Made by a program: the position numbers and the translations under genes. Source: a virus (Duplodnaviria > Caudoviricetes). From it: a stretch of 64,000 nucleotides of DNA. The DNA lies in the IMG/VR virus record IMGVR_UViG_2871760914_000003, positions 3,131 to 67,130 of that record. The stretch is one strand, 5' to 3'. Under the pieces are notes generated by a model. That model did no database searches and was not told where the DNA came from. It saw only the letters and a program-made list of their open reading frames with translations. This document shows positions 42,758 through 62,114 of the stretch, piece by piece. The stretch's first letter is position 1. Every line of letters starts with the position of its first letter.

Positions 42758-42889
42758 GTACAGTTATTGCCATTGTCCCCCAAGGGCCCGCGCCCTACCC
42801 GCCGTACAGTTATTAACAGAACTCCAAGGGCCCGCGCCCTACCCGCCGTACAGTTATTAACAGAACTCCCAGAGGCCGCTGTCGCGCCC
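42758..42889 (-). repeat. Three tandem copies (46/44-bp period) of the P2 gpA nick-site/ori sequence, outside any A gene
   Basis: GTACAGTTATT starts at 42758, 42804 and 42848; copies 2 and 3 contain GTACAGTTATTAACAGAACTCC; copy 1 degenerate. Confidence 0.9.
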
Positions 42890-42955
42890 TTAAACATCAA
42901 CGGCGCGCGGGCCTTCAGCCTCATCTCTCAGCGATCCTATCCAGGCCGCAGCCAT

Positions 42956-42978
42956 AAAAAAACCCGCTTTCGCGGGTT
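42956..42978 (-). terminator. ogr terminator
   Basis: AACCCGC-TTTC-GCGGGTT preceded on the plus strand by an A-tract. Confidence 0.75.
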
Positions 42979-42982
42979 GGGC

Positions 42983-43204
42983 TTACAGCAGCTGCGGTGA
43001 GGGGTTATTGCTGCCTTTTGCCATCATCGGCACCGTATTGATCTGCGCCGGTTCGACGATAATCCCGGACACGCTCTCCAGGGTTTTAAAGGTACAACTG
43101 CAGTTAATGTTCTGGCACTGGTGATAACGTTCTTTCGTCTCTTTCGAAACGTAGCGACTGCTTTTCGTATGGGCGGCGGTCTGACATTTTGGGCAATGCA
43201 TCAT
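42983..43204 (-). CDS. ogr: Late transcription activator (Ogr/Delta zinc finger)
   Basis: MMHCPKC...KERYHQCQNINCSCTF. Confidence 0.95.
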   Translation of the reverse strand: MMHCPKCQTAAHTKSSRYVSKETKERYHQCQNINCSCTFKTLESVSGIIVEPAQINTVPMMAKGSNNPSPQLL

Positions 43205-43266
43205 GGTGGTTCTCCTCTCTGGCATACAACAACATTAGCCAAAGACTAAACAAAAAGCAACTTAAA

Positions 43267-43281
43267 TTAGACTTAATCTAA
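43267..43281. promoter_or_regulatory. Putative CI operator upstream of ogr
   Basis: Palindrome TTAGA-CTTAA-TCTAA; same arms at 63389-63403 upstream of cI. Confidence 0.6.
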
Positions 43282-44435
43282 CCAGCCTGTTTTTCCACTA
43301 AGACGTAATCCACGTTTTCAACCATCAGCTCCAGGTTCAACAAGGTGGTAAATCCACTTTTATCGATGGTATGCACGATATTGGTAATCAGCCATTTTTG
43401 ATTATCGATGACCGATTTAAAACCCTGGGCTTTGACCGGCGTTTCAGGAATCAGCTTTGCAGCGCCCAGTGCCAGTAGGATCTTCAACGTAGCCCGGTTA
43501 CGTTGCAGATCCTGCCACTTCGCTTTAGCCGCCTCCTCTGCTTCCTCCTGGCTACTGAAGTGCGTATTCAGTAAGAACAGCTTCTTATTGCTGCCAAAAA
43601 CATAGGTTTTTCCCGGGTCTTGTTGCCCGATTGTGGGGATATTTTTGGCCGCCGGATGGACAGGGTTCACCGCCGGTGTTGCTGGCGGTATCGTGTTGAC
43701 GGTTATCCCTTTCTGCTGCGCCTTTTTCTGATCGTACCATTTTGCTTCAACGCCACTGTAATCGTCGCGCTTAAACAATTTGTACTCATACTTATCGCCA
43801 TCCTGTCGGTTCAGATTCAGGAGTGGAATCGGCTTTCCGCTCACGGTCACGCCCTGCCCGGGGGGAAAGAACAGTAGCGTCTTATCTTTTATTGCCGCCA
43901 CCGCGCCAACCAGCATAGCCAGCCGGGTAATGAACGTGCCGTCCGTTTCCTGCGTCTGATCGATATGCTTAATCTTTTTTTTGGCTATCTCCGGCCGCAC
44001 GTCGGAGGTAAGTCCGTTACGTTTCGCGATTTTGTCCACAACCTCGCCAACCGTCATGTCTGGATACGAATCAGTGATTTTAACATCGAGCGAACCGCTA
44101 AAATCGGCGCTTCGGGCGACAACCGTTATCGTGTCCGGCGCGCCCTGGTAGGTGACCTGATCAATGATGTAGGAGCCTTTATCTGCAAGCGGCTGCCCCT
44201 TCCAGCCTATCTCTAAGACCACTTTCGCGCCAAAGGGCGGCATGACCAACTGGCCGTCACTGTCGTCGAGCACCAGGTCCAGCTGATCGACCTCCAGGCC
44301 GCGGTTATCCGTTAACTTCAGAGAAATCAGCCGTGGGCGAATATCTTCCGTTTTATCCTTCGTCTCAATTTTGATAGTAAAGTCCGGCGTAGGCGCAACG
44401 CGCAGGGGCACCGGAATCGGGACGATATCGCTCAT
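43278..44435 (-). CDS. D: Late control/baseplate hub protein D
   Basis: RLISLKLTDNRGLEVDQLDL...HIDQTQETD..F...LIPETPV..QGFK. Confidence 0.93.
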   Translation of the reverse strand: MSDIVPIPVPLRVAPTPDFTIKIETKDKTEDIRPRLISLKLTDNRGLEVDQLDLVLDDSDGQLVMPPFGAKVVLEIGWKGQPLADKGSYIIDQVTYQGAPDTITVVARSADFSGSLDVKITDSYPDMTVGEVVDKIAKRNGLTSDVRPEIAKKKIKHIDQTQETDGTFITRLAMLVGAVAAIKDKTLLFFPPGQGVTVSGKPIPLLNLNRQDGDKYEYKLFKRDDYSGVEAKWYDQKKAQQKGITVNTIPPATPAVNPVHPAAKNIPTIGQQDPGKTYVFGSNKKLFLLNTHFSSQEEAEEAAKAKWQDLQRNRATLKILLALGAAKLIPETPVKAQGFKSVIDNQKWLITNIVHTIDKSGFTTLLNLELMVENVDYVLVEKQAG

Positions 44436-44436
44436 C

Positions 44437-44940
44437 TCAGCGCCCTCCATTCAGCGCAGAAGTGGCGCTGTTGATGACAGAGCCGACCCGTTGCGCTGCG
44501 TCACTGGCCCGGTTTTGCAGTTCTTCCGCCTGCCTTTTTAAGTCCCCGAACATACTGGTTAGTGAATCGTCTACCCGCATCAGGTTCAGGGTAAAGCCTA
44601 TCTTGCGCGCGCTGCCGTCGCTGTAGAACTCCGTATGCGTCGCCGAGAAATCCGTCACAACAAACATGCCGTAAATAATGCCATTGCCGCCAATCAGCGG
44701 CCACGCCAGCCCTTCATCGGCCATAGTCTTCAGCGCCAGCAGTGTGACATTGCCGCCGGTGATTTCAGGCCGGAGTTCGCCAGACAGCTTGATTTTATCG
44801 TCGCCGCCGCCCAAAAACTGGGTCGACTCACGACGCCCCACGCGGCTGTTTTTCGCCCAGCGATAGGTAATGTCATGCTGCAAATTGTCGAAGGGAAGGG
44901 TTTGCCGTACAAACGGCATCATGCCTAATATCATCATCAT
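44437..44940 (-). CDS. U: Tail protein U
   Basis: MMMILGMMPF...RVGRR...QFLG..DDKIKLSGELRPEITGG. Confidence 0.93.
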   Translation of the reverse strand: MMMILGMMPFVRQTLPFDNLQHDITYRWAKNSRVGRRESTQFLGGGDDKIKLSGELRPEITGGNVTLLALKTMADEGLAWPLIGGNGIIYGMFVVTDFSATHTEFYSDGSARKIGFTLNLMRVDDSLTSMFGDLKRQAEELQNRASDAAQRVGSVINSATSALNGGR

Positions 44941-44946
44941 GGTTAA

Positions 44947-47193
44947 TTAATCCAGACTAAACATGGAGTTATAGCTATGGTCAGACGTGGACCATGGCGA
45001 TGCAGTGGAATACTGCGCAACGGCCTGTCCAATCGCCTGAGGCTCACCTGTCGCATAGATATTGTTGGTGACCGTGTGCTGACGGTTATCCACGTTTGAA
45101 TTGTTAACCGAGGGCAAAGGCTGATTGAGCGTGCTGTTCAGGCTGGCGCGCGATGCGGCCGGACGGGTATCCGCGTTATCCTCATCCTCTTCATCCTGCT
45201 CACGCATTTTGGGCGGAGGCAGCTTGTCTTTCACCTTGTCAGATTTCTCATCGATGATGCCAAGCTTGCCCAGCACCCAGTCAATGCCGCCTCGCAGCTG
45301 ATTCAGGGCTTCACCGGGTAATTTGAGTGCCGTCGCCAGCATATTGCCGAAGCGCTGTCCCATCTCACCTGCCGAGGCCAGTTCCTGCTGAGAAAACTTC
45401 ACGGGTTCCAGCAGCTTTGAGAACCAGGCCCCCAGCTCGGACACTTTATTGCTGAACCACTCAAATACTGGCTTCAGCGGCGCGAACGCGTCGCTTATCG
45501 GCCCCATCGCCGCACTGAAGCCCTGAGCGATGCCGCTGATAAAGGCGCTAATCGGTTCCCAGTACTGATAAACCAGCATGGCCCCCGCCGCGATAGCGGC
45601 ACCAAGCACCACCACCGGCAGCGTGATCGCTCCCAGCGTGGCCGTAATGGCGCCGCCGATGATGGCAAATGCACCGCCCAGCAGCTCCACGCCCGCCATG
45701 ATGGTGCTCAGCCCGCTAATGACCGGCCAGGCAATGTTCCCGACGCTGGCCAGGGAATCCACCAAGGTCAGCCCACCGGCCGCCAGCGTCAGCAGGCTGT
45801 CAGAAAGTTGAGGATTGAGATTCATGACGCCGGTCAGAACAGACTGAACGGATAAGCCGTCCTGACTGATAGCTTGCAAGTTAGTATCCACAGAGGCATC
45901 TGCTGCAGGCGGCTGGGCAGCGGGCGCCTGAGACAGCTGATCCAGCCGGCCACTGGCCGCGCCCTTCATCAATGCTGCGGCAGGTGCGGCGCCCTGTTCA
46001 CCAAATATTGCCTGCAGATAAGTGGCCTGCTGGGCAGCGTCGAGCTTGTTTTTCTCAAACGCCGCCTGCACCTGGCTGAGCACCGCGAAAATGGGCTGAC
46101 TGTTGCCCTGGTCGTCAGCAGTTTGCACATTCAACGCTTTAAGCGCGCTGTCTGCGCTGGCATCAGGCGCCTGAACGTGCGTTAACATCGCACTGGCGCC
46201 GGCGCCTGCCTGGCTGCCCGTTATACCGTTTTCCGCCAGCACGCCCATCATGGCCGCGGTCTGGCCAACGCTTACACCGGCGTCCTTCGCGGCTGGCCCT
46301 ACGGCGACCATCGCCGTCTTAAGTGCGGCAAAATCGGGTGTTTTATTGGCAAAGGTCGATGAGAGCACGTCGCCTAACTGACCAACCTGGTCATCTGCAA
46401 TGCCGAACGCGTTTTTAATATTGAGCACCAAAGACGCGCTTTCTTGCATGCTACGTTGCGTCGCGTTTGCAAGGTTAGCTACTGCCGGTGCTGCAGCTTT
46501 TGCCTCACCCGATGAGCCACCCGATTGCGTAATCGCCGCGCGGGCTTGCACAACCTCATTTGCAGGTGACAGATAATCGATAACTTTGCGACCCTTCTCG
46601 ACAAAGTCTTTGGCTTTCGAACTGGCGCTTTGTACGTTATCTGCCAGCGCCATGCCCGCACGGTAACGTTCACGGGTGCGGTTGAGTTTGTCCTGACGCT
46701 GATTTAGCAGATTCATGGACTCACCCTGCGCATTGAGGGTGGATGTCGTGCGCTCTGTTTGTTGATTTAGCTTCTGGCGCTCGCTGCTCAACCGGCGCGT
46801 GGAAATTCCCGCCTCGTTCAGGGACTGGCGCTGATCCTGTACTGACTGACGCAGTTGAAGGTTTTTTTGCTGCAGCGCGTTAGCCGACTGACGCAGCTTA
46901 TCCAGCGCCTGGGTTTGTTCCGCGGTAGGGTTTTGAGTGTTTTTAAGTTGAATGGCAAGTGCCGCTGCTTCTGCCCGGGTATTTTTAAGATTTTGTTGGG
47001 TCAGCGTCAGTTCTTTGCGGGTTTCACGGAACCCTTCAATCTGCGCGGATTTGGCGTTGAGCTCGTCCAGGCGATCCTGCGTTTCCTGGATATCCGCAGA
47101 CAGCTTTTCGGTTTCTTTACGTACGGCATTGAACGGGCGCGTAGCCCGATCAACCGCTTCCAGCAGCACTTGCAGCTTGAGCGTGTTACTCAT
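44947..47193 (-). CDS. T: Tail tape measure protein
   Basis: LKLQVLLEAVDRATRP N-terminus, coiled coil, TP901-like core, WEPISAF; 748 aa, open. Confidence 0.93.
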   Translation of the reverse strand: MSNTLKLQVLLEAVDRATRPFNAVRKETEKLSADIQETQDRLDELNAKSAQIEGFRETRKELTLTQQNLKNTRAEAAALAIQLKNTQNPTAEQTQALDKLRQSANALQQKNLQLRQSVQDQRQSLNEAGISTRRLSSERQKLNQQTERTTSTLNAQGESMNLLNQRQDKLNRTRERYRAGMALADNVQSASSKAKDFVEKGRKVIDYLSPANEVVQARAAITQSGGSSGEAKAAAPAVANLANATQRSMQESASLVLNIKNAFGIADDQVGQLGDVLSSTFANKTPDFAALKTAMVAVGPAAKDAGVSVGQTAAMMGVLAENGITGSQAGAGASAMLTHVQAPDASADSALKALNVQTADDQGNSQPIFAVLSQVQAAFEKNKLDAAQQATYLQAIFGEQGAAPAAALMKGAASGRLDQLSQAPAAQPPAADASVDTNLQAISQDGLSVQSVLTGVMNLNPQLSDSLLTLAAGGLTLVDSLASVGNIAWPVISGLSTIMAGVELLGGAFAIIGGAITATLGAITLPVVVLGAAIAAGAMLVYQYWEPISAFISGIAQGFSAAMGPISDAFAPLKPVFEWFSNKVSELGAWFSKLLEPVKFSQQELASAGEMGQRFGNMLATALKLPGEALNQLRGGIDWVLGKLGIIDEKSDKVKDKLPPPKMREQDEEDEDNADTRPAASRASLNSTLNQPLPSVNNSNVDNRQHTVTNNIYATGEPQAIGQAVAQYSTASPWSTSDHSYNSMFSLD

Positions 47194-47308
47194 CTGAGGT
47201 TACTCCACTGCGGATCATCACTCTATGCCGCCAGTCGAGTAACTCTTCCAGCGACATGGGATACATTTCTGAGGGTGGCCAGTGAAAAACGCTGGCAATA
47301 TCGGCCAT
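47186..47308 (-). CDS. gpE' extension
   Basis: MADIASVFHWPPSEMYPMSLEELLDWRHRVMIRSG; slippery TTTTTTG at 47362-47368. Confidence 0.88.
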   Translation of the reverse strand: MADIASVFHWPPSEMYPMSLEELLDWRHRVMIRSGVTSDE

Positions 47309-47340
47309 CAGGTCATTGACCGTCAGATCGCGGGGCCAGC

Positions 47341-47637
47341 TTACGCGGCCGATTTCGCTGACAAAAAACCAATCACCTTGCCGCCCAGGGCAATCAGGTC
47401 AACTGGGTCCAGTGCGTTGCACTCTGCTTTGGTCAGCGATGGCATGGTGATGCGGGGCAGCACCATCAACAGGGCATCCACATCGGACGAGGCCAGATCA
47501 GCCAGCCGCACACCGCGCAGCGCGCCGGCGGTCGGTTTCACCAGCTCAACCTGAGCGATCACCACATCGCCACGTGAAATCGGGCTTTCCAGCACCACCA
47601 GGTTTTCTTTCAGTTCTGGCTTATCAAGCTGTTCCAT
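47341..47637 (-). CDS. E: Tail assembly chaperone gpE
   Basis: KPTAGALRGVRL...LPRIT.PSL...LDPVDL. Confidence 0.93.
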   Translation of the reverse strand: MEQLDKPELKENLVVLESPISRGDVVIAQVELVKPTAGALRGVRLADLASSDVDALLMVLPRITMPSLTKAECNALDPVDLIALGGKVIGFLSAKSAA

Positions 47638-47691
47638 TTTTTCTCCATCCCAATCAAGAGGGGCCAGCGCAGGACGCGCCGGCCGTTGTTA

Positions 47692-48204
47692 TTACACCAG
47701 GCCGAGGTTTTTACGGCGCTGTTCCAGACGATCGACGCCGTTGACCTTCTCCACCATGTTGACGGTGTCGATTTCAATCAGCTCTTTGCCATTCCAGGTC
47801 AGTTTGAAATAGGTGTTTTTACTGGTGATTTTGGTTTCGGTGTTTTCGCCCTGTTTGGCTTCACCGAAGTCAAAGGACTGGTGCTTACCGCGTACTTCGA
47901 TTTCCACGGCGATTTCTTCGCCGGTGTCATCACGCTGATAAGAACCGGTGAAACGCAACGGTACGTTCGCCATCGCGCCCCACTGGCTTAATACCAGCTC
48001 ATCCATCCCGCCCAGCGTCCACTCCATATCGAGTGCCGCATCGTCCAGGCCGTTATCAATGAATGCCGCACCGTTCATACCGCCAGCGCGGTAGGTATCC
48101 AGCTTGCGAGACAGCTTCGGCAGCGTAACTGCGGTGACGATGCCCTGATAGCTGTTTGAATCGTTGAAGAGGTTCAACCCCTTGAGTTTACGTGGCAGTG
48201 CCAT
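47692..48204 (-). CDS. FII: Tail tube protein
   Basis: MALPRKLKGLNLF...YRAGGM. Confidence 0.96.
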   Translation of the reverse strand: MALPRKLKGLNLFNDSNSYQGIVTAVTLPKLSRKLDTYRAGGMNGAAFIDNGLDDAALDMEWTLGGMDELVLSQWGAMANVPLRFTGSYQRDDTGEEIAVEIEVRGKHQSFDFGEAKQGENTETKITSKNTYFKLTWNGKELIEIDTVNMVEKVNGVDRLEQRRKNLGLV

Positions 48205-48216
48205 TTATCCGGCTCC

Positions 48217-49386
48217 TTAGCTGTTTACGGATGCGGCGAAGTTCGCCAGATAGGTATCGGTGATGCGCTGACGCAGGGTCAGATCTTCCAGCGGCGGCAC
48301 CGGCGTGTAGTCGTAATCGATAAACAGTTTGCCCGCCTTCAGGCTCTCTTTATCGTTGGCGCTTTCGTCGTACCAGCAGTTGGCGCCCAGCAGATAACCG
48401 GCGCTGACCAGCTCACGGAACTTGGCATTGATACCGGCGATGATTTCGCGTACCAGTACTGGCGTCAGCGGTTTGTCGTTGGCCCACATGTGCGCTTCCG
48501 CCATGGTATCGGCCAGAACCTGTGCTGAACGGGTGTAGTTTTCAAAGGCAAAAAGTGGATCGTCACTGCAGGTGCGGTTGCCCCAGAAACGGAAACCGTC
48601 CTTGCGAATCAGCGTGGTAACACATTTTTCGTTCAGCAGATCGGCATCGGTGCCGGTCTGTTGCAGATCCCAGAAAACATCTGCAGAGATACCCGTCACG
48701 CCATTGACGCCCACGTTAGACAGGGTTTTATGCCAGCCGGTGTCGTTGTCAATTTTGGCGCGCAGGCCCAACGCACGTGCGGTGGCATAAGCCATTTCAG
48801 ATTTATTGGTTGCCGTGTTCCAGGCAATAAAATCTGGCCAGATCACCATCAGCTCGCGCTGGCTGAAGTTTTCGCGGTACTTCATGGCGTCAGAAATGGT
48901 TTTGCTGTTCCAGGCAGAGACGTAGGCAAAGCCACGCAGCTGCTGGGCAATGCTGGCCAGCGCTGTCGCCACTTCCAGCGAATCCAGACCCGGCACGCCA
49001 AGAATGCGCGGTTTAACACCCAGCTGCGTTTGCGCGCTGAGCAGCGCCTTCATGCCGGTGTATTTACCGTTCGCATCCGTCGAGCCAATCAGGTTAGAGG
49101 TGGTTTCAGCCTGGCTCGCGCCTTCTGCAACGCGAACCACGACGGTTACCGGCTTCGCCTGGTCAGCAATCGCCTGCAGCGCGGCCGCTAAGGTGCCTTT
49201 GGTACCGGCTTTACCGATAGCTGCCTGCACGTTGGTCAGCAGAACAGGTGTGTTAAGAGGAAATGCCGTTGCATCAGCATCTTCTGCGGTGCAGATCATG
49301 CCAACAATGGCGGTTGAAACTGTTGAAATGGTGCGTGTACCGTCATTGACTTCGACGACGCGGACACCGTGATGAAAATCAGACAT
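48217..49386 (-). CDS. FI: Tail sheath protein
   Basis: [13 protein letters not shown]...GFRFWGNR...[11 protein letters not shown]. Confidence 0.97.
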
Positions 49387-49455
49387 CTGTAGCACTCCGT
49401 GTTGTGGGTGTGCTCAGAGTGTCAGGTCAGTAAAAAGGATGCATGCGATTGCGGT

Positions 49456-49473
49456 TTGCTGATCGTTCAGTAA
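49456..49473 (-). promoter_or_regulatory. Variant late activator site (pF), TTG-N12-TAA
   Basis: 70 nt upstream of FI, the position occupied by TGT-N12-ACA in prophage 1 (71 nt). Confidence 0.5.
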
Positions 49474-50045
49474 GAAGAACCGCGTAAATGGTGCTGTTTT
49501 GGCGCTGGAATATAACGATAAATGGTTTTGGTTGAAACATCTAATACGAGTGCAACCTGATGAAGCGTGGCGCCATTCGCCATCATGCGTTCCGCTCTGG
49601 CAACGACTTCCGGTGTCATAATGCGCCGGCGGCCACCAATGCGTCCTTTCTCACGCGCAGCGGTCAGGCCGGCACGCGTTCGCTCGACAATCAATTCGCG
49701 CTCCATCTCCGCCAGTGCGCCCATCACATGAAAGAAAAAACGGCCCATCGGTGTGCTGGTATCGATGCTGTCCGTGAGGCTACGAAAGTTTACCCCGCGT
49801 TCGCGCAGCTCTTCGGTGAGCATGACCAGGTGACGCATGCTGCGGCCCAGTCGATCGAGCTTCCATACCACCAAAGTATCGCCCTCTTTTAACGTCCGCA
49901 GCGCCCGCTTTAAACCAGGCCGTTCACTGGTCTTACCGCTGATTTTATCCTCAAAAATCTGTTCACAATTTGCGCTCTGCAGCGCATTCCGTTGCAAATC
50001 GGTGTTTTGGTCATTTGTTGACACCCTGACATAGCCAATCAGCAT
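49467..50045 (-). CDS. Serine DNA invertase (Gin/Hin/Pin family)
   Basis: MLIGYVRVSTNDQNTDLQ...VVWKLDRLGRS...ELIVERTRAGL..AR..GRIGGR, C-terminal HTH. Confidence 0.97.
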   Translation of the reverse strand: MLIGYVRVSTNDQNTDLQRNALQSANCEQIFEDKISGKTSERPGLKRALRTLKEGDTLVVWKLDRLGRSMRHLVMLTEELRERGVNFRSLTDSIDTSTPMGRFFFHVMGALAEMERELIVERTRAGLTAAREKGRIGGRRRIMTPEVVARAERMMANGATLHQVALVLDVSTKTIYRYIPAPKQHHLRGSSY

Positions 50046-50110
50046 CGTTTTTTCTCCGGTAAAAGGTGAGGAGTTTGCCATTGTGCAGGTGAGGCGGGCT
50101 AGGGGTTTGT

Positions 50111-50136
50111 TTCATCAAAACCTCGGTTTGGGAGAA
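50111..50136 (+). repeat. Invertase crossover site A (gix/pix-like)
   Basis: TTCATCAAAACCTCGGTTTGGGAGAA, inverted relative to sites at 52344 and 53858. Confidence 0.9.
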
Positions 50137-50640
50137 GGCTCTGCTTTGCCGGTTGGGGTGCCTGTTCCATGGCCGTCTGAAATACCACCATCAGGCTGGT
50201 TAACCTGTAATGGTGACGCTTTTAGTGCAACTGATTTCCCGCTCCTGGCGAAAGCTTATCCATCGCTTAGATTACCGGATTTGCGTGGGGAGTTTATTCG
50301 TGGTTGGGATGCTGGGCGTGGTGTCGATATCAGCAGAGGAATTTTAACATCGCAGCAGTCAACGACCCTAAGAACCGCGATGCTTGATTACTATAACCAA
50401 GACGCAACGGGGGCGAATGGTGTAGTCGGTTTAGGATTCAAAAATGAAGATTCATTATTTGATATGCAGCAATATGATTTCAAAATGCCAGATGGAACTA
50501 ATCCAAATAATTATGAAGGCGCGATCTCAGACAATGGTATGAATGCAACCATTATTACCAGTATAAAATCTGGAATATCGAAAGGTATAAGTTTCAGACC
50601 ACGTAACTTAGCATTCAATTATATAGTGAGGGCTAAGTAA
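50137..50640 (+). CDS. Silent tail fibre C-terminal cassette (collar type)
   Basis: In frame from site A: NLGLGEGSALPVGVPVPWP...PDLRGEFIRGWD...RPRNLAFNYIVRAK; no own start. Confidence 0.88.
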   Translation, partial: GSALPVGVPVPWPSEIPPSGWLTCNGDAFSATDFPLLAKAYPSLRLPDLRGEFIRGWDAGRGVDISRGILTSQQSTTLRTAMLDYYNQDATGANGVVGLGFKNEDSLFDMQQYDFKMPDGTNPNNYEGAISDNGMNATIITSIKSGISKGISFRPRNLAFNYIVRAK

Positions 50641-52793: not shown

Positions 52794-52957
52794 TTAAAAA
52801 CCCGCATACGCGGGTTTTTTTAAAAGCCAAGCACTATTAATCGCTTAAAAAATGCATAAAAAAATCATGAAGCCGCAGGCAAACTAAATACTTACATTAA
52901 ACCAGCTTAGGGCAAATAGATCGAGAGCTATAACTCATTGTTAAGAAATGATTTTAA

Positions 52958-53176: not shown

Positions 53177-53179
53177 CTG

Positions 53180-54478
53180 TTACCACTCCACTATGAGGAT
53201 ACCGGGCTGACCTACAGCACCGTTACCATTAATGCCAGTAGATCCCCCTGCGCCGCCAGAACCAAAACCGTCTCCAATGTAACCATTTTGGCCGCCGGCA
53301 CTGCCATTACCAGAAGATCGCACTGCTCCCCCGCCGCCACCGAATGGGCAAGATGCGCCTGCACCGCTATTTCCCGTTCCAATGACTAAGAGAGTTTTGC
53401 CACTATCACCCGCACCATCTCCGCCGGAGCTTCCCCGAGGATATCCTCCTCCGCCAGCCCCGCCATACTGCGCTGAACCTCCGCCACCAGGGTCTCCACC
53501 CTGACCGGCGATAAGGGTCAAATAACTGCCAAAAACAGTATTGCCACCAGTACCCCCAGCCTTACCATCTGAGTTTACTGACGTGGTTCCACCGACACCA
53601 CCCGCCCCGATAATCACATCAACTATCTCTCCAGATTTAACGGTTATAGCGCGCTTGATAACTGACTGCCCAGCACCACCACCTCCAGCACCACCGCCAA
53701 ATTCACTGGTGTTGGTTCGGCAACCGCCGCCACCGCCACCGCCGCCGCCAGCACATCCGGATAGATAAATAGTCGTTACACCATCAGGCACCTGGAACTT
53801 ACCGCTACTGATGAATTGTTTAACGCCTCGAGAGCGCGAAATTTCATTTTGGACCGCTTCTACAAAACCGAGGTTTTTAAGAACCTCCGCCACCAGCCCC
53901 GCGTCTTTAATTTCTGCCAGCGCTTTAGCCGTTTGCAGATACTGACTATGGGGATTGGCCGCATCAACGTGCTTCTTCATCACATCGTCGGTGTAGGCTT
54001 TCACCTCGATGACTTTGTCATCCACATACTGGCGCGTGGCGAGCACAACTGAAGGGTCAATTTTCAACGTGACGGCACTGGTGCTGTTCACGATCAGGAT
54101 CATACGCACGGTCTGAGTACGACCGCTGCCCTCCTGCAGTTGCGGCTTGTAGGTTTCCGCGCAGTTCGCGACGGCAATCAGCACGCCGTCGGCGTCATAC
54201 AGGCCAATCTCACGGATCCAGAAGCCGCCTTCGCCTTCAGGGATAATCTGTTCAGCGATAATCTGGCTGCTGTTCGCGGCATCCACCTTCAGCGAATTCA
54301 GCCCGGCACGGCGCTTTTCGCCCACCAGTTTGGTCTGCGCAGGATCGGGCGTAGGTAAAACACCGCCGCCGTCACCCACCGCCATCTGGGTAATCTGCAG
54401 TTGGGTTCCCAGGGCCGCGGCATTGGCCAGCTTTGCCGCGCCCTGATTGGTCAGTAGGGCAAAATATTTCGTTGTCAT
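53180..54478 (-). CDS. H: Tail fibre, currently with glycine-rich tip
   Basis: P2 H N-terminus TKYFALLTNQGAAKLANAAALG; crossover site C at KNLGF; Gly-rich C-terminal domain. Confidence 0.93.
   Translation of the reverse strand: MTTKYFALLTNQGAAKLANAAALGTQLQITQMAVGDGGGVLPTPDPAQTKLVGEKRRAGLNSLKVDAANSSQIIAEQIIPEGEGGFWIREIGLYDADGVLIAVANCAETYKPQLQEGSGRTQTVRMILIVNSTSAVTLKIDPSVVLATRQYVDDKVIEVKAYTDDVMKKHVDAANPHSQYLQTAKALAEIKDAGLVAEVLKNLGFVEAVQNEISRSRGVKQFISSGKFQVPDGVTTIYLSGCAGGGGGGGGGCRTNTSEFGGGAGGGGAGQSVIKRAITVKSGEIVDVIIGAGGVGGTTSVNSDGKAGGTGGNTVFGSYLTLIAGQGGDPGGGGSAQYGGAGGGGYPRGSSGGDGAGDSGKTLLVIGTGNSGAGASCPFGGGGGAVRSSGNGSAGGQNGYIGDGFGSGGAGGSTGINGNGAVGQPGILIVEW
53858..53883 (-). repeat. Invertase crossover site C, inside H
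   Basis: Plus strand TTCTACAAAACCGAGGTTTTTAAGAA. Confidence 0.88.
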
Positions 54479-55083
54479 GCTCTCACTTCCGTCAGGTCAA
54501 TAAGATGGACCGCTGCGCCGGTGTAACCGGAACCGCCTGCGGTGATAACTTCAGGTGTATAGGGGTAAACAGTAAGCTCATCGCCACTGTAACTGGCGGC
54601 CGCAACAGGAACGGTGCCGGTGCTGTCCAGGTTGATGGATAACCCAGTCAGGTGGCGACTCACCGGCTTGGCATCGGCAATCAGCCGCTCCAGCTCGTTG
54701 TACATCGCTTCGGTAATACCGGTTTCCAGTACGCCGACATCAAGGCGAAAGGTGCCGGGCGCTTCATTGGTTTGCCACCATTCCTTAATGCGAATCAGGT
54801 AGCCCAGTGGCTCCACCACACGGCGCAGAGAGCCAATCGTCCCTTTGTGTTTATGGATATATTCCGATGCAGCAACCACGCTGCGTTTCGTGCTTTCGCT
54901 CCAGCCCGAATCCCAACGATCCACCGACCAGGCCCAGGCCAGGTAAGGCAGTAGCTCCACCGGACAGGTCTGCGAATTCCATAACTGGCGCAAAGGAACA
55001 GGAATGGATTCCAGCGCTGCGCAGGCTTCAGCCGCGGCAACTTCCAGGGCTGATGAACCCGTTGGCAGCAGGCGTTTACTCAT
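54475..55083 (-). CDS. I: Tail protein I
   Basis: LLPTGSSALE...LPYLAWAWSVDRWD. Confidence 0.95.
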   Translation of the reverse strand: MSKRLLPTGSSALEVAAAEACAALESIPVPLRQLWNSQTCPVELLPYLAWAWSVDRWDSGWSESTKRSVVAASEYIHKHKGTIGSLRRVVEPLGYLIRIKEWWQTNEAPGTFRLDVGVLETGITEAMYNELERLIADAKPVSRHLTGLSINLDSTGTVPVAAASYSGDELTVYPYTPEVITAGGSGYTGAAVHLIDLTEVRA

Positions 55084-55984
55084 CGGAACCTCCTACCGTG
55101 ATCTGGTAGCCGGTGCAGAACGCCGCCTGGGTTTTATCCAGCACCACATCGGCCACCGGCTGGGCCAGTTCGACGCGCTGTACACCTTCTACATGTAGCG
55201 CGGCATACAGCGCAGACTTGCGAATATCGCGGCCTAAACGTGCCTGGGTGTTTACAAATGCCTTGAGCTTCGCCTCGGATGCGGCACGGATGGGCTCCGC
55301 CTCGGGACCGGGATACAAATACAGCGTGGCGTCAACGCGGTAATCCACAATCTGAGCCGACTGGACGGTAACCCGGTCAGCAACCGGACGGACATCTTCG
55401 TCATTTAGCGCGGCATTCACGATCGCCAGCAGGTCGCTGCCCGCCGCACCGTTGCCTTCGCGGGACAGCACGGTAATCGTGACGCTGGCGGGAGAGGGGC
55501 TGATAGCCGAGGCATCGGCTACGCGGCCATCGGCGCTGCGAGCATGAAATTCGTAAGCACCGGACGGCCCCGCAACACTCAGCCCTTCAAACGCGGCGGC
55601 AATGCGGGCGCGGAAGTCTTCATCCCGCTCCATTACCGCCTCAACGGGCGGCGTAGCGGTATTATCCGCCGGCGTCAGCACCAGCCGTGTCACGCCGTTG
55701 TTGGCGCCCAGTTGATCCAGATCGCTGCCGTTGGCCCAGGCCACCATCACCGCCTTGGCCGCCTCGTTGATGCGCTGACGCAGAATGACTTCCCGGTAGG
55801 CGTTCTCCTGCAGGAGTTTCACCAGCGGGTCGGACTCCAGCGCCAGAACCCGGGCAACCGATGCCTGCTCATCTGCAGGATAGAGCGAAATCAAGGTGGC
55901 TTTGCGTTCGGCAAGCAGCGTTTCATAGTCCAGCGTTTCCACCACGTTTGGCGCAGGCAACTGGCTCAGGTCGATAGTAGGCAT
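55076..55984 (-). CDS. J: Baseplate J
   Basis: IDLSQLPAPNVVE...SVAGPSGAYEF...VRPVADRVTV. Confidence 0.96.
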   Translation of the reverse strand: MPTIDLSQLPAPNVVETLDYETLLAERKATLISLYPADEQASVARVLALESDPLVKLLQENAYREVILRQRINEAAKAVMVAWANGSDLDQLGANNGVTRLVLTPADNTATPPVEAVMERDEDFRARIAAAFEGLSVAGPSGAYEFHARSADGRVADASAISPSPASVTITVLSREGNGAAGSDLLAIVNAALNDEDVRPVADRVTVQSAQIVDYRVDATLYLYPGPEAEPIRAASEAKLKAFVNTQARLGRDIRKSALYAALHVEGVQRVELAQPVADVVLDKTQAAFCTGYQITVGGSDE

Positions 55985-55987
55985 GAT

Positions 55988-56338
55988 TCAACTCACAGGG
56001 ACGGTTAACGAAAAATCCTGCGCGGTGTCCGCACGGTTGCCGGTGATTTCCACCACCATCCCGCCGTCAAACGCAGATTCAAAATTAATGGCAGTCAGGC
56101 TGATGCGCGGCTCCCACTGCAGGATCGCCATATAACAGGCTGACATGATTTGCAGGCGCAACCTGTCGTTCTGCGGCTGGTCGATTAGCGCCGACAACAG
56201 TGAACCGTAGTTACGGCGCATCACCCGCGATCCCAGCGGCGTCGTCAGAATGTCACGGACGGACTGGCGGATATGCTCCAGCTCAACGAGGGTTACGCCT
56301 GTTTCGCGGCTCATGCCGGTGTAGCGTGCTGTTGTCAT
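55988..56338 (-). CDS. W: Baseplate W
   Basis: HIRQSVRDILTTPLGSRVMRRNYGS...WEPRI; start MTTARY. Confidence 0.94.
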   Translation of the reverse strand: MTTARYTGMSRETGVTLVELEHIRQSVRDILTTPLGSRVMRRNYGSLLSALIDQPQNDRLRLQIMSACYMAILQWEPRISLTAINFESAFDGGMVVEITGNRADTAQDFSLTVPVS

Positions 56339-56919
56339 AATGGTGCTCCTGTGGTGCCACCGCTGTCGCCCGGATGCTGGTGCGTATGCAGCACTTTGCC
56401 GTTGGAGGCGAAGCTGCCGCCGCTGTGCGACACATCGCCCTTCATGGTGCCGCCCTGGGTCACTTCCAGCGTGGCGGTTTTCAGTAACGTGGTGCACTCC
56501 ACTTCTGGCGTATCCAGCAGGATTTTGACAGCCGCCTTGATCGTCGCCGTCTGAATCCCTTCGGCTTTCAGCGCGCCGGTTGCAGGCTCGTATTCAATGA
56601 CCGCACCATCGGGAAAAGAGTAGTGCAGCGCATCGGCAGAGGCCGAGGGCGCCGGGCTGGCGTCAGAGAACACGCCGGGTAACACGAAGCCGCTGTTCAG
56701 CTCACCGCCCAGGCTTATGATCAGCACCTGCTCGCCTGGCGACGGCGCATTCCATGAACGGGTTCTTCCCGCCCGGGCACTTAGCCAGTGCAGCCAGTCA
56801 GTGGTGTTATCGCCAGTTTTTACCCGGCAGGTTCCCGCCTCCAGATTGATGGCGGCAACGGTGCCAATGCGGACCATGTTGCGCAGCAAGCGCTTGATTT
56901 CTAATATTTGCTCGTTCAT
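56335..56919 (-). CDS. V: Baseplate spike V
   Basis: MVRIGTV...RAGRTRSWNAPSPGEQV...HTHQH. Confidence 0.95.
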   Translation of the reverse strand: MNEQILEIKRLLRNMVRIGTVAAINLEAGTCRVKTGDNTTDWLHWLSARAGRTRSWNAPSPGEQVLIISLGGELNSGFVLPGVFSDASPAPSASADALHYSFPDGAVIEYEPATGALKAEGIQTATIKAAVKILLDTPEVECTTLLKTATLEVTQGGTMKGDVSHSGGSFASNGKVLHTHQHPGDSGGTTGAPL

Positions 56920-56965
56920 GGCATTAGTTTCTCGTTGCAGGAGAAAAGCGGCAATCGAATGCCGT

Positions 56966-56983
56966 TTACCCAGGGATGGCTAA
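56966..56983 (-). promoter_or_regulatory. Variant late activator site (pV), TTA-N12-TAA
   Basis: 47 nt upstream of V (TGT-N12-ACA is 48 nt upstream in prophage 1). Confidence 0.5.
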
Positions 56984-57011
56984 ACAGCGCGTCAGCGGAT
57001 AAGGGTTATCG

Positions 57012-57482
57012 TTATGTTTTCCATTCGCTGACCAGCTTGCCTTTGATGTACAACTGCCAGGGGCGCTCAACATTTTCCGGCATAGCCGGTTCTGGCAGAT
57101 GCGTGATGTGTAATGCGCCGTTCTGCTGCTCAACCCAGACGCGTTCGGTCAGTTGCAGAGTGATATTCACCTTACTGCGCCCATCGCCGCTTGCCTCAAG
57201 GGTGAAGGTAAAGCCGGTGCGACGTTTCTCATCCGAAACCATGATGTCGGGCTGGTTTTCCCGAAGCCATGTCAGCAGGGGAACCATGATCAGATCGATA
57301 TCCTCTGCGTAGTCAGTAATCGTGACGGCCAGCTGGAAGTGGTATTCAAACGACAGCGAGCTGGCCAGCGTGGAAACCAGGTTTCCGGACTGAATCGCTA
57401 TCGTCAGGTTGTCAGGATTTTGCTGAAGCAGCGGAACGCTGTTTATCAGCACCTGGCGTAGTTGGGTCGCTTTCAACATCAT
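57012..57482 (-). CDS. R: Tail completion/terminator protein R
   Basis: MLKATQLRQVL...FEYHFQL...WLRENQPD...LQLTERV; no S gene follows. Confidence 0.9.
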   Translation of the reverse strand: MMLKATQLRQVLINSVPLLQQNPDNLTIAIQSGNLVSTLASSLSFEYHFQLAVTITDYAEDIDLIMVPLLTWLRENQPDIMVSDEKRRTGFTFTLEASGDGRSKVNITLQLTERVWVEQQNGALHITHLPEPAMPENVERPWQLYIKGKLVSEWKT

Positions 57483-57732
57483 GCTGCTCCTGGCACGCTT
57501 TAATCATCTCAATCTGCAACCCGCACGATGCGAGCGCAGCCTCTAACTGGCGGTTATCCGCCGCCAAATCACCCTGCGTCTGCAGGTTGTTTTCCGGAAT
57601 GGGGCAACTTGTCACGCGTGGACAACCAGTCCAGATAATCTCGGGCATTGCTGAAGGCCGGACGGCTGTGCAGCCGGATAACGTCAGCAGGCAAAGCAGC
57701 AGCGCTCCAGACACGTAAAGCGGGATTGGCAT
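57412..57732 (-). CDS. lysC: Outer-membrane spanin lipoprotein
   Basis: Lipobox TLSGC; CPRVTSC...QGDL. Confidence 0.83.
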   Translation of the reverse strand: MPIPLYVSGALLLCLLTLSGCTAVRPSAMPEIIWTGCPRVTSCPIPENNLQTQGDLAADNRQLEAALASCGLQIEMIKACQEQHDVESDPTTPGADKQRSAASAKS

Positions 57733-58003
57733 CGGTTTCTCTTCTGATAATGGTTTCACGATGGAGCGCCTGCGCGCTGGCCTGGTTCTGAAGCAGCCGC
57801 AGCGCCGCCTCACGTTTTCGGCTAGCCTGGATATCCGCATCGAGTTGGGCCAGCGCCTTGTCCCGGCTGCTGACGTCAGCCGTCAGCGTACTCACCCTGC
57901 GCTGTGCCTCATCCCGTTGATGAGTCATCACGCTAAGGCGCCAGCCGGTTAAGCCCAGGGCAATAAGCAAAATGGCGATCGCCAGTGCAACCAGTCGCAT
58001 CAT
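57569..58003 (-). CDS. lysB: Inner-membrane spanin
   Basis: TM helix, coiled coil, WSAAALPADVIRL. Confidence 0.86.
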   Translation of the reverse strand: MMRLVALAIAILLIALGLTGWRLSVMTHQRDEAQRRVSTLTADVSSRDKALAQLDADIQASRKREAALRLLQNQASAQALHRETIIRRETDANPALRVWSAAALPADVIRLHSRPAFSNARDYLDWLSTRDKLPHSGKQPADAG

Positions 58004-58509
58004 GCCGCTCCTTTTAAACACCACGCCATTTCGCGCTGGCGACGGTTATCCAGGCCCGGGTTGTAGGTGCCTTTGACATATACCCAGCGCTTAAGCTGCA
58101 GGCAGGCATCGTGCCAGCGGCCGCTGTTGATCAATCCCGCCAGCGTTGAGTGACAGGCGGCGTGCACGCCAACGTTAAAACCGAATGACACCACCGCGTC
58201 ATAAACCTGGAACGGCATTTCACGTGGCATGCACTGGTCGATCCCGCGTTCAACGCGCATCACGTCGTAAACCAGGTTTACCGCGGCCTGGCGCTCGTTC
58301 ACCACGCTGGTCGTGGTAACACCTTGCGTGTGACCAATGCCGTTGGTCCAGACGCCGGCGCTGCACTGATAGGGCGAGGTGCGGCAGCCTTCTGCATCGG
58401 CAATCAGCTTCAGGCCGGCTTCAGAGGTTTTCAGCATGTTGATTTGCGGTAGCAACGCGGCCAGGGCCAGTACGGCCGCCACGGCGCAACGTTTAGCGGT
58501 CTGGCTCAA
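58000..58509 (-). CDS. GH24 SAR-type endolysin
   Basis: TTG start aligned with prophage 1 lysozyme (QTAKRCAV); EGCRTSPYQCSAGVWT; GLDNRR. Confidence 0.9.
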   Translation of the reverse strand: MSQTAKRCAVAAVLALAALLPQINMLKTSEAGLKLIADAEGCRTSPYQCSAGVWTNGIGHTQGVTTTSVVNERQAAVNLVYDVMRVERGIDQCMPREMPFQVYDAVVSFGFNVGVHAACHSTLAGLINSGRWHDACLQLKRWVYVKGTYNPGLDNRRQREMAWCLKGAA

Positions 58510-58717
58510 AGTTAAGCCCCTGTAAGTTGCGCTGCTGTAGCTCGTAAGTTTTGCGACGGTAGTGCCAGTTGATAAAAAACGTCGCAACGTTGGTGCACAT
58601 GGTCAAAACGGCGACGCCAGAGCCAACCATAAAGGCGATATCCTGCGGTGTGTGACGTCCAAACCACATCAGGACGATCCCGATGAGGTAATTAATCAGA
58701 GAACTGATTTTTTCCAT
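58493..58717 (-). CDS. Holin
   Basis: MEKISSLINY..., two hydrophobic segments, WHYRRKTY; homologous to 10154-10366. Confidence 0.83.
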   Translation of the reverse strand: MEKISSLINYLIGIVLMWFGRHTPQDIAFMVGSGVAVLTMCTNVATFFINWHYRRKTYELQQRNLQGLNFEPDR

Positions 58718-58722
58718 TGGCG

Positions 58723-58926
58723 CTAATCCCACAGATTGAGGGTTTCACCCGTGGCCGCCTGAGGCAGCTCCGGTAACACCACTCTGCATCCGTGCGGTAA
58801 TGTTGGGCCTTGTTCTGCCAGGCCAGGATTGGCGGCATAAACCTGTTCAACCGCCTGCTGCGTGCGTCCGTAGTAACGCCAGCAGATCTCATCAACGGTT
58901 TCTTCCTGTTGTGCGTAAATCAGCAT
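58723..58926 (-). CDS. X: Tail protein X
   Basis: MLIYAQQEETVDEICWRYYGRTQ...ANPGLA. Confidence 0.92.
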   Translation of the reverse strand: MLIYAQQEETVDEICWRYYGRTQQAVEQVYAANPGLAEQGPTLPHGCRVVLPELPQAATGETLNLWD

Positions 58927-59618
58927 TGATTGGCCCCTTATGAGCGTAAAAGCCATGGTCGAGTAGGCGATAAGTTGAGAACATCCGCTGTCGTGGTGAC
59001 AGGCAATAAAGGCCCCGTTGGCCAACAGAAACCTGTTCAGAGAATTGCACCGTCGGGCCACCAAACCGCCCTGAAGCCGAATCCGGATAACCCGGATACG
59101 CGATGTGCATTGGCCTTCGCGCAGAGCGATCCAGAGATTGCTGTGCCTGCCGCTTGTCAGAAGTAGTGTGTGCCTCAGCAGGCGCTTGCTCAACGCAAGG
59201 CCGTCCGCTCAAGGCTGGGCGGGCAGAGGGTTACACCCTGGATGCGGGCGCCGATGGAAGGGTCGCGAAAGCGCTGGGATGACGTGAGCGTATTTGCTTT
59301 CACAGCGACGACCGGGAGAGGTCGTAAGCCAGCAACAGGAAAGGGGCAGTAACCAAAAGATTGCCGCGAACGCTGACAGGAAAGCGGCCGGGATAACGTT
59401 ATTCAGTAAAGGTGGGGGAAGACTACGCCTGGCGAACAGGGGTTGCTGCAAACGCCTGCAGGCAGCAGATGCCCCGCGTTTTCGGTCGGTCATGACGCAA
59501 TGTCAGCGATAAAACGCACTGGCGCGGTTTTGCTGTTGCCCGCACCTGAACCCTCTCATCCGTTAAGATGGCTCAGGCAACGGACAACCGTCCTGATGTC
59601 ACAGTGAACGCGTCGCCA

Positions 59619-59813
59619 TCATGATTTTTTTAAAGGCGTCGCCGCAAAGACAACAGAAAAGTGGTTATCGGAAAGGGTGTAGTTCGCAGCGATTTCAGCG
59701 ATCAAATTTAACGCGATTTCCCTGTCACGCTCCCGGCAGGCTCCTTCACTGGTAAGCCTGGCGATAAGTTCGACGCGTTCAAGCATGACTCGCTCATGTA
59801 ATTCATTTCCCAC
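59619..59813 (-). CDS. Tum-like SOS-controlled small protein
   Basis: ERVELIARLTSEGACRERDREIALNLIAEIA; GTG start 23 nt after LexA box; same position as tum in prophage 1. Confidence 0.72.
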   Translation of the reverse strand: MGNELHERVMLERVELIARLTSEGACRERDREIALNLIAEIAANYTLSDNHFSVVFAATPLKKS

Positions 59814-59835
59814 AATTCCCTCCCCCAAATAAATA

Positions 59836-59851
59836 CTGTACATACATACAG
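59836..59851. promoter_or_regulatory. LexA box
   Basis: CTGTACATACATACAG. Confidence 0.9.
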
Positions 59852-60050
59852 TAGCATAGCATTCGTTAACTGTGGAAGCGTTTTAAGATAGTTCGTAAAA
59901 AATTATATCATGTTGATAGGCATCAACTTTTGTTGTACTGCCTGCCAGACAGGTGAAGGCACACTTACGCCAGAAGCGTAAGAAAAATCAATAGATTTTC
60001 TTCATTTACCTATCCAAAACAGCAGGTTTTCACTCCGCCTTTTCGTCACG

Positions 60051-62114
60051 TCAGGGCGAAAAAGAAATCCTCATCGTTGGCTGGGCCGCAGGAGAAGCAT
60101 CGCCTCTGTCGTCGCCTGAAACAGGGCCAGGAATGCGTAAAGGCGAAGCCCGGCAGATAAACCTGGAAGCCCTTTCGCCTTGGTGACCTCTGCGCCACGG
60201 ATCTGTGCGCAGATCGCCAGATACCTCACTTCCGGCATAAAAACGGCTTACGGGATCCGTACAGTTATTAACAGAACTCCAAGACAACGAAGCGGACTGG
60301 CTTTTTTCGTCGCCCGCATCTTCAGCACGTTTGGGCACCAGCTTCCATAGCTTTAACCGCGTCAGGACTGGCGTATCAGCACCAACGGCAGTGGCGTAAA
60401 CGCCTTTAATTGACTGGATTTCCTCACTAAACGCATTACAGCTTTCGGCGGGCTGGTACCAGGTGCGCACCACAAGCGCGTCGCGTTTAACGAACGGGCC
60501 GCCCTGGGCATTGATGTAGTCGGCCCATTGACCGGCATCGGCCGCATCGTGCACCGCGGCGAATTCCACGCTCAGGCCATGCGCGGTTTCGGTGTCCGCC
60601 ATGCGGCGAAGTTCGCGATAAACTGTTACGGGCGCACCTCCAATAAACTGAAACTGGCGGATGTGCCAGCGAGCTGCCCATGCCGACACCGCCATCGCCG
60701 TCTCCCTTAGCGGTTTACCGCTCTCGTTATCCCGCTCGCCCTCTAGCGCATAGCCGTCAATGTTTTTAGAAACATATTTGGCAACATAGCCGGTCGCGCT
60801 GCCTTTCGCCGGATCGATCGCTTCGACGTGAAAACGGGCTTTGCGCGCCTTTGCGCTGTCTAGTTCCTCACTGTCCTGCTGGCAGGCGTAATGGCGCAGG
60901 ATCTCGTCTACGCGGTTAACGTCTTCAGGGCGCATAAACATCAGCAAATGCCAGTGGGGCGTGCCATCATGATGCGGCTCCGCAACCCGTAAACCAAAAA
61001 TGCTGATCTTTTCACGGTGCAGTTTGGCCCGCACTTTTTGCCAGAGTGAGCAGAGATAGCGCTGTGTTTCGGCCGGGCTGGCCCCCGTCCATTTAGCGTT
61101 ACGGTGACCACTCTGCAAGGTCGCGTGATAGCGTGACGGCGCGGTTAACGTGTAGAAGCAGGCCCGGAAGCCCATATCCTGACAGATGGTTTCGAAGCCA
61201 CGGATACGCGTCATCAGTTCAGCACGACGAATAGCCGGATTGGCTACGCTGCCGTCGTATTTTTCAATCAGGCTGATGCGGTTGCCCTCTTCATCCTCCA
61301 GATCCATTCCCTGAAGGAAATCACGGGTACGTCGGCGTTGCTCACGCCATTCCGCTACGGCCATAAGGCTGGCATAAGGGGAATGCGTTTTATTGACGTT
61401 CGCCAGGGCGATATGCAGATGTTCACGCCAGAAGGCACTGATACGACGCAGCTGACCTTTCCACCATTTTTCCGCCTGCATACGCAGAATGGCCGAGGTC
61501 ACCGCTTCAGGGCAGAATACGCGGGCGCTGACGGTTTCCCATAAAGGCGGCGTCTGACCCAGCTCATGGGTGATCACCGCCGCGGTCATATACAGTCTGT
61601 GGGTATAACGGTAGTCCGTATCGGTTTGGGCGTGAGTGTGCAGTTGCACCAGCTCCGCGTGAATGAAATGCGCGATATCCCCTGCCAGCACATCAGTGTC
61701 GGCACGGGACATATCCGGAAGGCGGTTAAAGCGTTTCATCAGTTCCCACAGCGTGCCAGCGGCTCTGGCTGCCCCCTGCGGGCAGGACATGCTGCGGGTC
61801 AGCTGTGCGACAACGCCCGTGCGCATATCATGCAGTTGATAACGTCGGTTAACAGCGTCAACACGTGGCAATGTGCGCTCAACAAAGGTTTTTGCTAAGT
61901 AGGCATTGGCCCGGGCTGTTCCCTGCTGCTGCTCCAGACTGGCAAGACGACGCTTCACGTCCATCTGGACAATGCTGGGCTGGGCACGAAGAATTTTCTG
62001 TCCGTGCAACCACGCCGCAATCTGTCGATGACGGTGCTGCTGCTGGTCATGGGTCAGATACGGGCTGGCTATCGCCAGCCGCGGGGCGTTCCACGGGTAA
62101 GCGAACGACATCAT
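60051..62114 (-). CDS. A: Rolling-circle replication initiator gpA (open, divergent short C-terminus)
   Basis: FAYPWNAPR, EPHHDGTPHWH, YVAKYVSKN all intact; 687 aa. Confidence 0.93.
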   Translation of the reverse strand: MMSFAYPWNAPRLAIASPYLTHDQQQHRHRQIAAWLHGQKILRAQPSIVQMDVKRRLASLEQQQGTARANAYLAKTFVERTLPRVDAVNRRYQLHDMRTGVVAQLTRSMSCPQGAARAAGTLWELMKRFNRLPDMSRADTDVLAGDIAHFIHAELVQLHTHAQTDTDYRYTHRLYMTAAVITHELGQTPPLWETVSARVFCPEAVTSAILRMQAEKWWKGQLRRISAFWREHLHIALANVNKTHSPYASLMAVAEWREQRRRTRDFLQGMDLEDEEGNRISLIEKYDGSVANPAIRRAELMTRIRGFETICQDMGFRACFYTLTAPSRYHATLQSGHRNAKWTGASPAETQRYLCSLWQKVRAKLHREKISIFGLRVAEPHHDGTPHWHLLMFMRPEDVNRVDEILRHYACQQDSEELDSAKARKARFHVEAIDPAKGSATGYVAKYVSKNIDGYALEGERDNESGKPLRETAMAVSAWAARWHIRQFQFIGGAPVTVYRELRRMADTETAHGLSVEFAAVHDAADAGQWADYINAQGGPFVKRDALVVRTWYQPAESCNAFSEEIQSIKGVYATAVGADTPVLTRLKLWKLVPKRAEDAGDEKSQSASLSWSSVNNCTDPVSRFYAGSEVSGDLRTDPWRRGHQGERASRFICRASPLRIPGPVSGDDRGDASPAAQPTMRISFSP
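60257..60283 (-). other. gpA origin/nick site (headless element)
   Basis: Plus strand CCGTACAGTTATTAACAGAACTCCAAG; identical to 42802-42828. Confidence 0.88.

Follow-up and report, generated by a model that had tools for sequence, protein, structure and literature searches.

Late gene expression in P2-type phages depends on replication. When two origins are arranged as direct repeats, an HUH initiator starts at one of them and cleaves and rejoins at the next, releasing the intervening segment as a circle, and the part of the origin required for termination is smaller than that required for initiation. Tailocins are regarded as having lost their replication functions, and the production of hundreds of particles per cell from a single chromosomal copy is rarely questioned. 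Here we describe a head-less P2-type element in a 64,000-nt stretch of DNA (the window; positions 3,131 to 67,130 of the IMG/VR provirus record IMGVR_UViG_2871760914_000003), in which gpA-type origin sequences occur both within the initiator gene A and, outside any A gene, beside the late activator gene ogr. The closest described counterparts are the A-gene origins of phages P2 and 186 (AF063097, rep_origin 29892; U32222, 28576), which have the same CTYG^GAGTYCTGTYAATAACTGT nick core and GC hairpin 3-5 nt upstream, and are oriented alike with respect to A and the late genes. These phages have one origin, inside A, whereas the element analysed here has a second, extragenic copy after ogr and an intragenic copy without the hairpin.

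The element (42983-64000 of the window) is a Pantoea pantailocin, i.e., a domesticated 186/P2-type prophage that has lost its capsid genes, integrase and att (attachment) sites and retains its SOS-controlled switch. Its D protein shows 99% identity to that of LMG 2665 and 96% to that of P. allii and on this basis the host is Pantoea ananatis. LMG 2665 carries this element between dnaG-rpoD (left) and an aldolase/phosphotransferase system (PTS) operon (right of cI), and this dnaG-rpoD/sugar-operon position is that of the published pantailocin locus. Pantailocin particles are inducible by mitomycin C, their production having been shown in the strains of the respective study, and the locus was described as being without replication genes (bioRxiv 10.1101/2023.05.07.539753). 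Contrary to this description, the pantailocin locus does have replication genes, as gene A is intact.

The ori-like array next to ogr and its distribution

Three ori-like units are located at 42756-42872, directly past the intrinsic terminator of ogr (42956..42976, − strand), which was recognized by sequence and is kept in all relatives. A 27-bp sequence, CCGTACAGTTATTAACAGAACTCCAAG, at 42802-42828 (unit 2) has an identical copy (27/27) inside gene A at 60257-60283 and a 26/27 copy at 42846-42872 (unit 3). Matches comparable to this repeat were not obtained in any of 100 shuffles, and the repeat is thus far past chance. The partial unit at 42756-42780 (unit 1) has in common with the others only CCGTACAGTTATT and CCAAG. 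The periods of the array are 46 and 44 bp, and Tandem Repeats Finder reports a period of 44 with 2.2 copies and a score of 180. The original prediction had placed three tandem ori copies, with no A gene around them, beyond the ogr terminator; its coordinates, identities and strand are correct and tblastn revealed no A remnant, and of the three copies units 2 and 3 stand as such, whereas unit 1 is without the nick half.

The nick core CTYG^GAGTYCTGTYAATAACTGT occurs with at most one mismatch in units 2 and 3 and in the A-internal site. Unit 1 (42756..42780, − strand) contains the 3' box TGGCAATAACTGTACGG and lacks the nick half GAGTTCTGT, with GGGACAATGGC at the place expected for it. No conserved sequence of the element lies farther out than this unit, and within ~2 nt past it the similarity among strains and species ends; homologous partial units are present in genomes G002, G005, G036 and G060, and the box-only unit is kept in both element types distinguished below. 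Unit 2 (42802..42828, − strand), with nick motif and box, arose by a 44-bp tandem duplication that the window shares with LMG 2665 and with one of 19 IMG/VR relatives; it is missing in 17 of these 19 and in P. allii, which have only units 1 and 3. The 27-bp identity of unit 2 to the A-gene origin, reported originally and exact, is a by-product of this recent duplication. With one copy being a minority duplication and another devoid of the nick half, the units do not qualify as the redundant fail-safe terminators that had been proposed. In a diverged species (G060:C6, L085, ~4200-4340) a three-unit array with a ~42-nt period and a degenerate middle unit was observed, which indicates that tandem duplication of the unit recurs.

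Only unit 3, designated ori2 (42846..42904, − strand), is both ancestral and complete. It is composed of an imperfect hairpin (42873-42890), the nick motif CTCTGG^GAG and the box GAGTTCTGTTAATAACTGTACGG, and is intergenic, outside any gene A coding sequence. The segment 42846-42904, i.e., unit 3 with ~35 nt upstream, shares 86% identity over 59 nt with the A-gene ori region of 186 and ~85% identity with the A genes of prophage 1 and of a satellite island in the window, while the element's own A gene is matched over 28 nt only. Searches with tblastn and blastn around the array gave no further A-gene similarity beyond this ~60-nt origin, so that ori2 is a minimal origin with an A gene as its source. 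The possibility of a decayed A gene was rejected on the same searches.

All five ori cores of the record are on the + strand and so share the sense of the three − strand A genes. Direct orientation is likewise seen between ori2 and the A-internal site, with a spacing of 17,411 nt when measured to unit 3 and 17,455 nt to unit 2, the values calculated originally. The TTAAT variant of the core is confined, within the record, to the array and the A gene of the head-less element, the corresponding variants being TCAAT in prophage 1 and ACAAT in the island; this distinction, also drawn earlier, holds. By alignment to the annotated nicks of P2 (AF063097:29892, ..CTCG^GAGTCC..) and 186, nicks are predicted on the − strand at 60280/60279 (A-internal site), 42869/42868 (unit 3) and 42825/42824 (unit 2). 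The head-less element's two sites share their strand with the origins of prophage 1 (21826) and of the satellite island (34124), which makes four to five directly oriented gpA sites inside 40 kb. Cross-talk among the three initiators is conceivable.

To describe the distribution of ori2, the ogr loci of 75 Pantoea species genomes were scanned and the elements were then inspected directly. An origin core adjacent to ogr (on the ogr strand, 0-70 nt past the terminator) is present in 8 of the 75 genomes, which fall into two types: type 1 (G001 and G002) and type 2 (G005, G016, G036, G041, G025 and G060). Compared with the window, type 2 elements encode ogr with ~68% and D with 44% identity. Types 1 and 2 differ in their chromosomal flanks, and the left-flank genes of type 2 are common with those of integrase-containing head-less elements. 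All six ori2 elements with contiguous sequence are head-less and integrase-less, and their two origins form direct repeats spaced 13.7-16.9 kb apart (17.4 kb in the window).

Elements of G052 and G065, head-less with the integrase kept, have no ori2; their ends are 186-like ATCGCCAT arm sites and a tRNA gene. The remaining 20 ogr loci of the genus have no origin core within 1.5 kb. Most of these sit 23-31 kb from the A origin, like full prophages, and in the one checked, G073, capsid, portal, terminase and integrase genes are all present. Cultured P2-like phages have exactly one origin place, inside A (103/103), and 400 sampled Enterobacterales genomes contained no other same-strand origin pair within 20 kb. 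In the elements inspected, the presence of ori2 is tied exclusively to head-less elements without integrase. The predicted association with headless elements holds for those without integrase and does not extend to the two head-less elements that retain it. The latter (G052:C20:374000-398000 and G065:C1:608000-633000; L080-L083) are P2/186-like and contain int, cI, an A gene with a full origin, a tRNA att site and arm sites of the 186 type. Possibly they are mobile elements made up of a tail only, or else satellites needing the capsid of a helper phage.

Origin parts retained at the two sites

The hairpin 5' of the nick was evaluated in 45 distinct phage A-origin contexts as at least 5 consecutive Watson-Crick pairs in either of two fixed registers. 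A canonical GC hairpin ending 3-5 nt 5' of the nick is found in 34-40 of the 45 contexts (34/45 with the criterion of at least 5 pairs), compared with 0-2 in other registers, and at least 8 different stem sequences occur among these hairpins, which indicates that the structure is maintained by compensatory change. All ori2 sites (8/8) have the hairpin, which in type 2 is GGCGGC-agc-GCCGCC and abuts the T-run of the terminator. At the A-internal site it is absent in 6/6 inspected integrase-less elements, as well as in the window's own (G005 has CGAG at this place), and it is present in the A genes of G052 and G065, of the intact prophage G073, of prophage 1 and of the island. The two sites are not equivalent, the hairpin being lost at one and retained at the other.

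The same division is visible in the conservation of each site among four type 2 genomes. At the A-internal site the mean pairwise identity is 0.48 for the 5' half, 1.00 for the 3' box and 0.53 beyond it; at ori2 the respective values are 1.00, 0.83 and 0.26, as compared with a synonymous divergence (dS) of A of 0.30-0.55 between these genomes. The values show complementary decay, in which each site retains the half that its partner lost, and ori2 itself has the features of a genuine gpA-type origin under selection. For the homologous A protein of phiX174, a nick-proximal decamer suffices to cut single strands (termination), and a start on duplex DNA needs the downstream 'key' sequence. The pattern of complementary decay fits such a division of labour between start and stop. 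In one type 2 genome (G016:C2, L074) the A-internal site and ori2 have 36 identical nt in common, a stretch that begins with the loop and 3' arm of the hairpin and includes the box; A lacks the 5' arm only. This suggests that the element's own origin was duplicated or that gene conversion took place between the sites.

Gene A (60051..62114, − strand; PF05840, E = 1e-117, 393 bits) encodes an HUH rolling-circle initiator and contains the origin core 60257-60283 without the canonical 5' hairpin. The HWH motif and the motif GYxAKYxSKN with both active-site tyrosines (GYVAKYVSKN; Y450/Y454 in P2 gpA) are conserved in all elements. The frame is open in all surveyed species, and the ratio of nonsynonymous to synonymous substitutions (dN/dS) is 0.11-0.23, so that the gene is under purifying selection. 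Intact motifs, open frames and low dN/dS together indicate that an element devoid of capsid and integrase keeps a predicted working initiator, in line with the catalytically intact A that had been proposed. The gpA linker around the origin (60284-60320 and its homologues) is hypervariable between species, and the 23-nt box is invariant, synonymous positions included, which argues for constraint at the DNA and not the protein level.

Proposed amplification of the late module and competing explanations

We favour, with a probability of roughly 55%, an explanation in which the late module may be amplified in situ by bounded rolling-circle replication without excision. The following steps would be involved: (i) upon SOS induction, gpA would nick the A-internal core at ~60279/60280; (ii) the fork would travel in the sense in which A is transcribed and pass the tum-like gene, the lysis and tail genes and ogr; (iii) gpA would cleave and rejoin at ori2, at ~42868; (iv) a circle of ~17.4 kb (13.7-15.2 kb in other species) would be released with no excision of the element; and (v) the circle junction would combine the hairpin half of ori2 with the box half of the A site into one complete canonical origin. 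As a complete origin would be rebuilt, the circle could be amplified further. The purpose is likely a raised copy number of ogr and the late genes. We infer all of these, i.e., nicking, direction, circle release and benefit. The segment between the sites comprises exactly the tum-like/SOS gene, lysis genes, tail genes and ogr, as the original prediction of two directly oriented sites bracketing the late module had it. Judging from the genomes compared, the second origin appears exactly where excision became impossible, and the two sites seem to have become specialised.

A more specific version, for which we would offer somewhat less than even odds, is that of a natural 'split origin', in which a single P2-type origin was divided into two sites after the loss of the integrase. 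The A-internal site would then serve initiation only (nick and box) and the site beyond ogr termination only (hairpin and nick), and a complete origin would exist solely on the excision-free circle of the late module.

Several points weigh against the proposed amplification. The predicted junction, hairpin(ori2)-CTCTGG^GAGTTCTGTTAATAACTGTACGGATC, had 0 matches in IMG/VR and JGI metagenome contigs, which is a weak test, as assemblies drop rare forms. P2 gpA acts in cis, and because the circle would be without an intact A gene, its secondary amplification may be limited. No feature able to stop a fork past ori2 was identified, and the proposal that the array stops run-off into the chromosome found no support. 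The ori2 hairpin of the window is predicted to fold with one internal mismatch, in 4 of 19 P. ananatis-type loci GCG replaces GAG beside the nick, and in several type 2 genomes the ori2 box is AATAAGTGT or GCGATAAGTGT, as against CATTAACTGT in the box of their own A site. The association with integrase loss represents at most two independent lineages, and the A tree is a polytomy, which does not separate a shared from a separate origin of types 1 and 2. Finally, the nicked strand and the direction are assumed from the GenBank coordinate and by analogy with phiX174; were the opposite strand nicked, the start and stop roles would swap without any change to the amplicon or the rebuilt origin.

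The alternative that survives best, although we consider it unlikely, is that selection maintains ori2 as a gpA target for a different function: either as the main initiation site, relocated out of A, that drives leftward replication of the adjacent cargo, or as a site where bound gpA links replication proteins to ogr or to late transcription without any circles. It would account for the full canonical architecture being at ori2 and not at the A-internal site, for the variable cargo zone just left of the array, where similarity breaks exactly at unit 1, and for the conservation of a box-only unit without a nick motif. However, a fork started from ori2 on the A-sense strand would leave the element and meet no terminator downstream, and LMG 2665 has only these sites. 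Moreover, this alternative leaves the invariant A-internal box unexplained and does not predict the link with integrase loss.

Somewhat less probable again is a non-functional relic, i.e., a fragment of an A gene left by a tandem-prophage rearrangement or an aberrant gpA event and persisting by chance and local duplication. The 5' part of the type 1 ori2 is homologous to 186-type A coding sequence and was thus copied from an A gene, the number of tandem units is polymorphic, and the locus is crowded with P2-like elements. A chance remnant would nevertheless hardly be trimmed to a functional origin at both sides, or recur at an identical position in elements with D proteins of only 44% identity. 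It would also not be expected that hairpin and nick remain invariant while the neighbouring 3'-untranslated region and flanks are scrambled, with a complementary loss of the hairpin at the partner site.

We regard it as very improbable that the array serves defence or interference, as a decoy or sensor for the gpA of P2-like phages and satellites that are incoming or co-resident. Two further gpA genes, of prophage 1 and the island, are indeed present in the window, and the type 1 hairpin half is closer to their origins than to the element's own. Nevertheless, the TTAAT box is the variant of the element's own A gene and not of its neighbours, and LMG 2665 carries ori2 with no other gpA. Nicking of the chromosome by a foreign gpA would bring no evident benefit, and neither the retention of the own A gene nor the link with integrase loss would be explained. 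Attachment-site features (Int arm sites or a core), suggested by the position directly past the ogr terminator, that of the attP P arm in 186, and by the boundary of element similarity at unit 1, are hardly credible and were rejected, as the sequence is an origin homologue, there is no integrase and no matching repeat beyond cI, and the real att ends in G052 and G065 are quite different.

Genetic setting and comparison with known systems

The gene order of the element (42983-64000) is ogr, D, tail genes, a fibre shufflon, V, R, LysC, lysozyme, X, a small gene, A, TraR-like, DUF2732 and cI. The ogr gene (42983..43225, − strand) encodes a B-type late activator (PF04606, E = 4.5e-19). It is followed by the tail, tail-fibre shufflon and lysis module (D ... 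FI ... J, V, R, LysC, lysozyme, X; 43278..59193, − strand), and capsid, portal and terminase genes were not found in this region or in the whole element. The small conserved gene in tum position (59619..59853, − strand) has a perfect LexA box, TACTGTATGTATGTACAGTA, at 59834-59853, directly before the gene; its location between A and X is a 186-tum-like arrangement, and its true start is probably 59806 or 59813, not 59843. The early operon (62111..64000) encodes a TraR-like zinc finger, DUF2732 and a 139-aa open reading frame (ORF), and the divergent CI repressor is encoded at 63404-64000, with no integrase past cI. Neither an integrase after cI nor paired att/end repeats were found in the element, an int fragment at 39529-40023 falling outside it.

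The region between rpoD and the array (39065-42755; L009, L012, L021) is a variable cargo zone. In the window it contains the integrase fragment (39529-40023) and a 206-aa ORF, followed by 146-aa and 182-aa ORFs. In other strains a secreted-looking 125-aa ORF replaces the latter two, and the swap point is exactly unit 1.

The feature is, by the sequence comparisons made, real, conserved and unusual, and the mechanism proposed for it is plausible. If true, it would constitute a simple mechanism of gene-dosage control in a tailocin under development for crop protection, explain the purifying selection on a rolling-circle initiator in a capsid-less, integrase-less element and show the P2-family origin naturally separated into a start part and a stop part. 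The published account of the pantailocin locus as being without replication genes would be corrected. A split origin, if true, would be a bacterial counterpart of geminiviral replicational release, and would make the conserved P2 hairpin a termination element (an initiation element, were the opposite strand nicked).

Among known systems, the pantailocins of P. ananatis and P. stewartii (bioRxiv 10.1101/2023.05.07.539753) share with the element the locus (dnaG/rpoD and a nutrient-uptake operon), ENT90-related tail genes and an invertase-linked fibre switch. Compared with the published description, the structural cluster is here flanked by an intact A gene, an early operon, cI and two origin sites. 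The R-type pyocins and carotovoricin are likewise head-less P2-type contractile tails with a lysis cassette and SOS induction. To our knowledge, their loci have neither gpA nor an origin and use other activators, and no copy-number mechanism has been described for them.

The layout of two origins as direct repeats is the same as in double-origin constructs (phiX174 gene A protein, f1 gene II, pT181/pC194 Rep) and in geminivirus 'replicational release' or LIR-SIR-LIR vectors. Those are laboratory constructs or viral multimers, whereas here the layout would be a natural one on a bacterial chromosome, with functions apparently split between the sites. In lateral transduction and lambda escape replication, as in the proposed amplification, copying takes place in situ before excision; such prophage replication is of the theta type and unbounded. 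The oriIS-terIS pair of IS91 and Helitrons resembles the two sites in that an HUH enzyme uses distinct start and stop signals. IS91 and Helitrons, however, are mobile and move, whereas the product proposed here would be a dead-end expression template.

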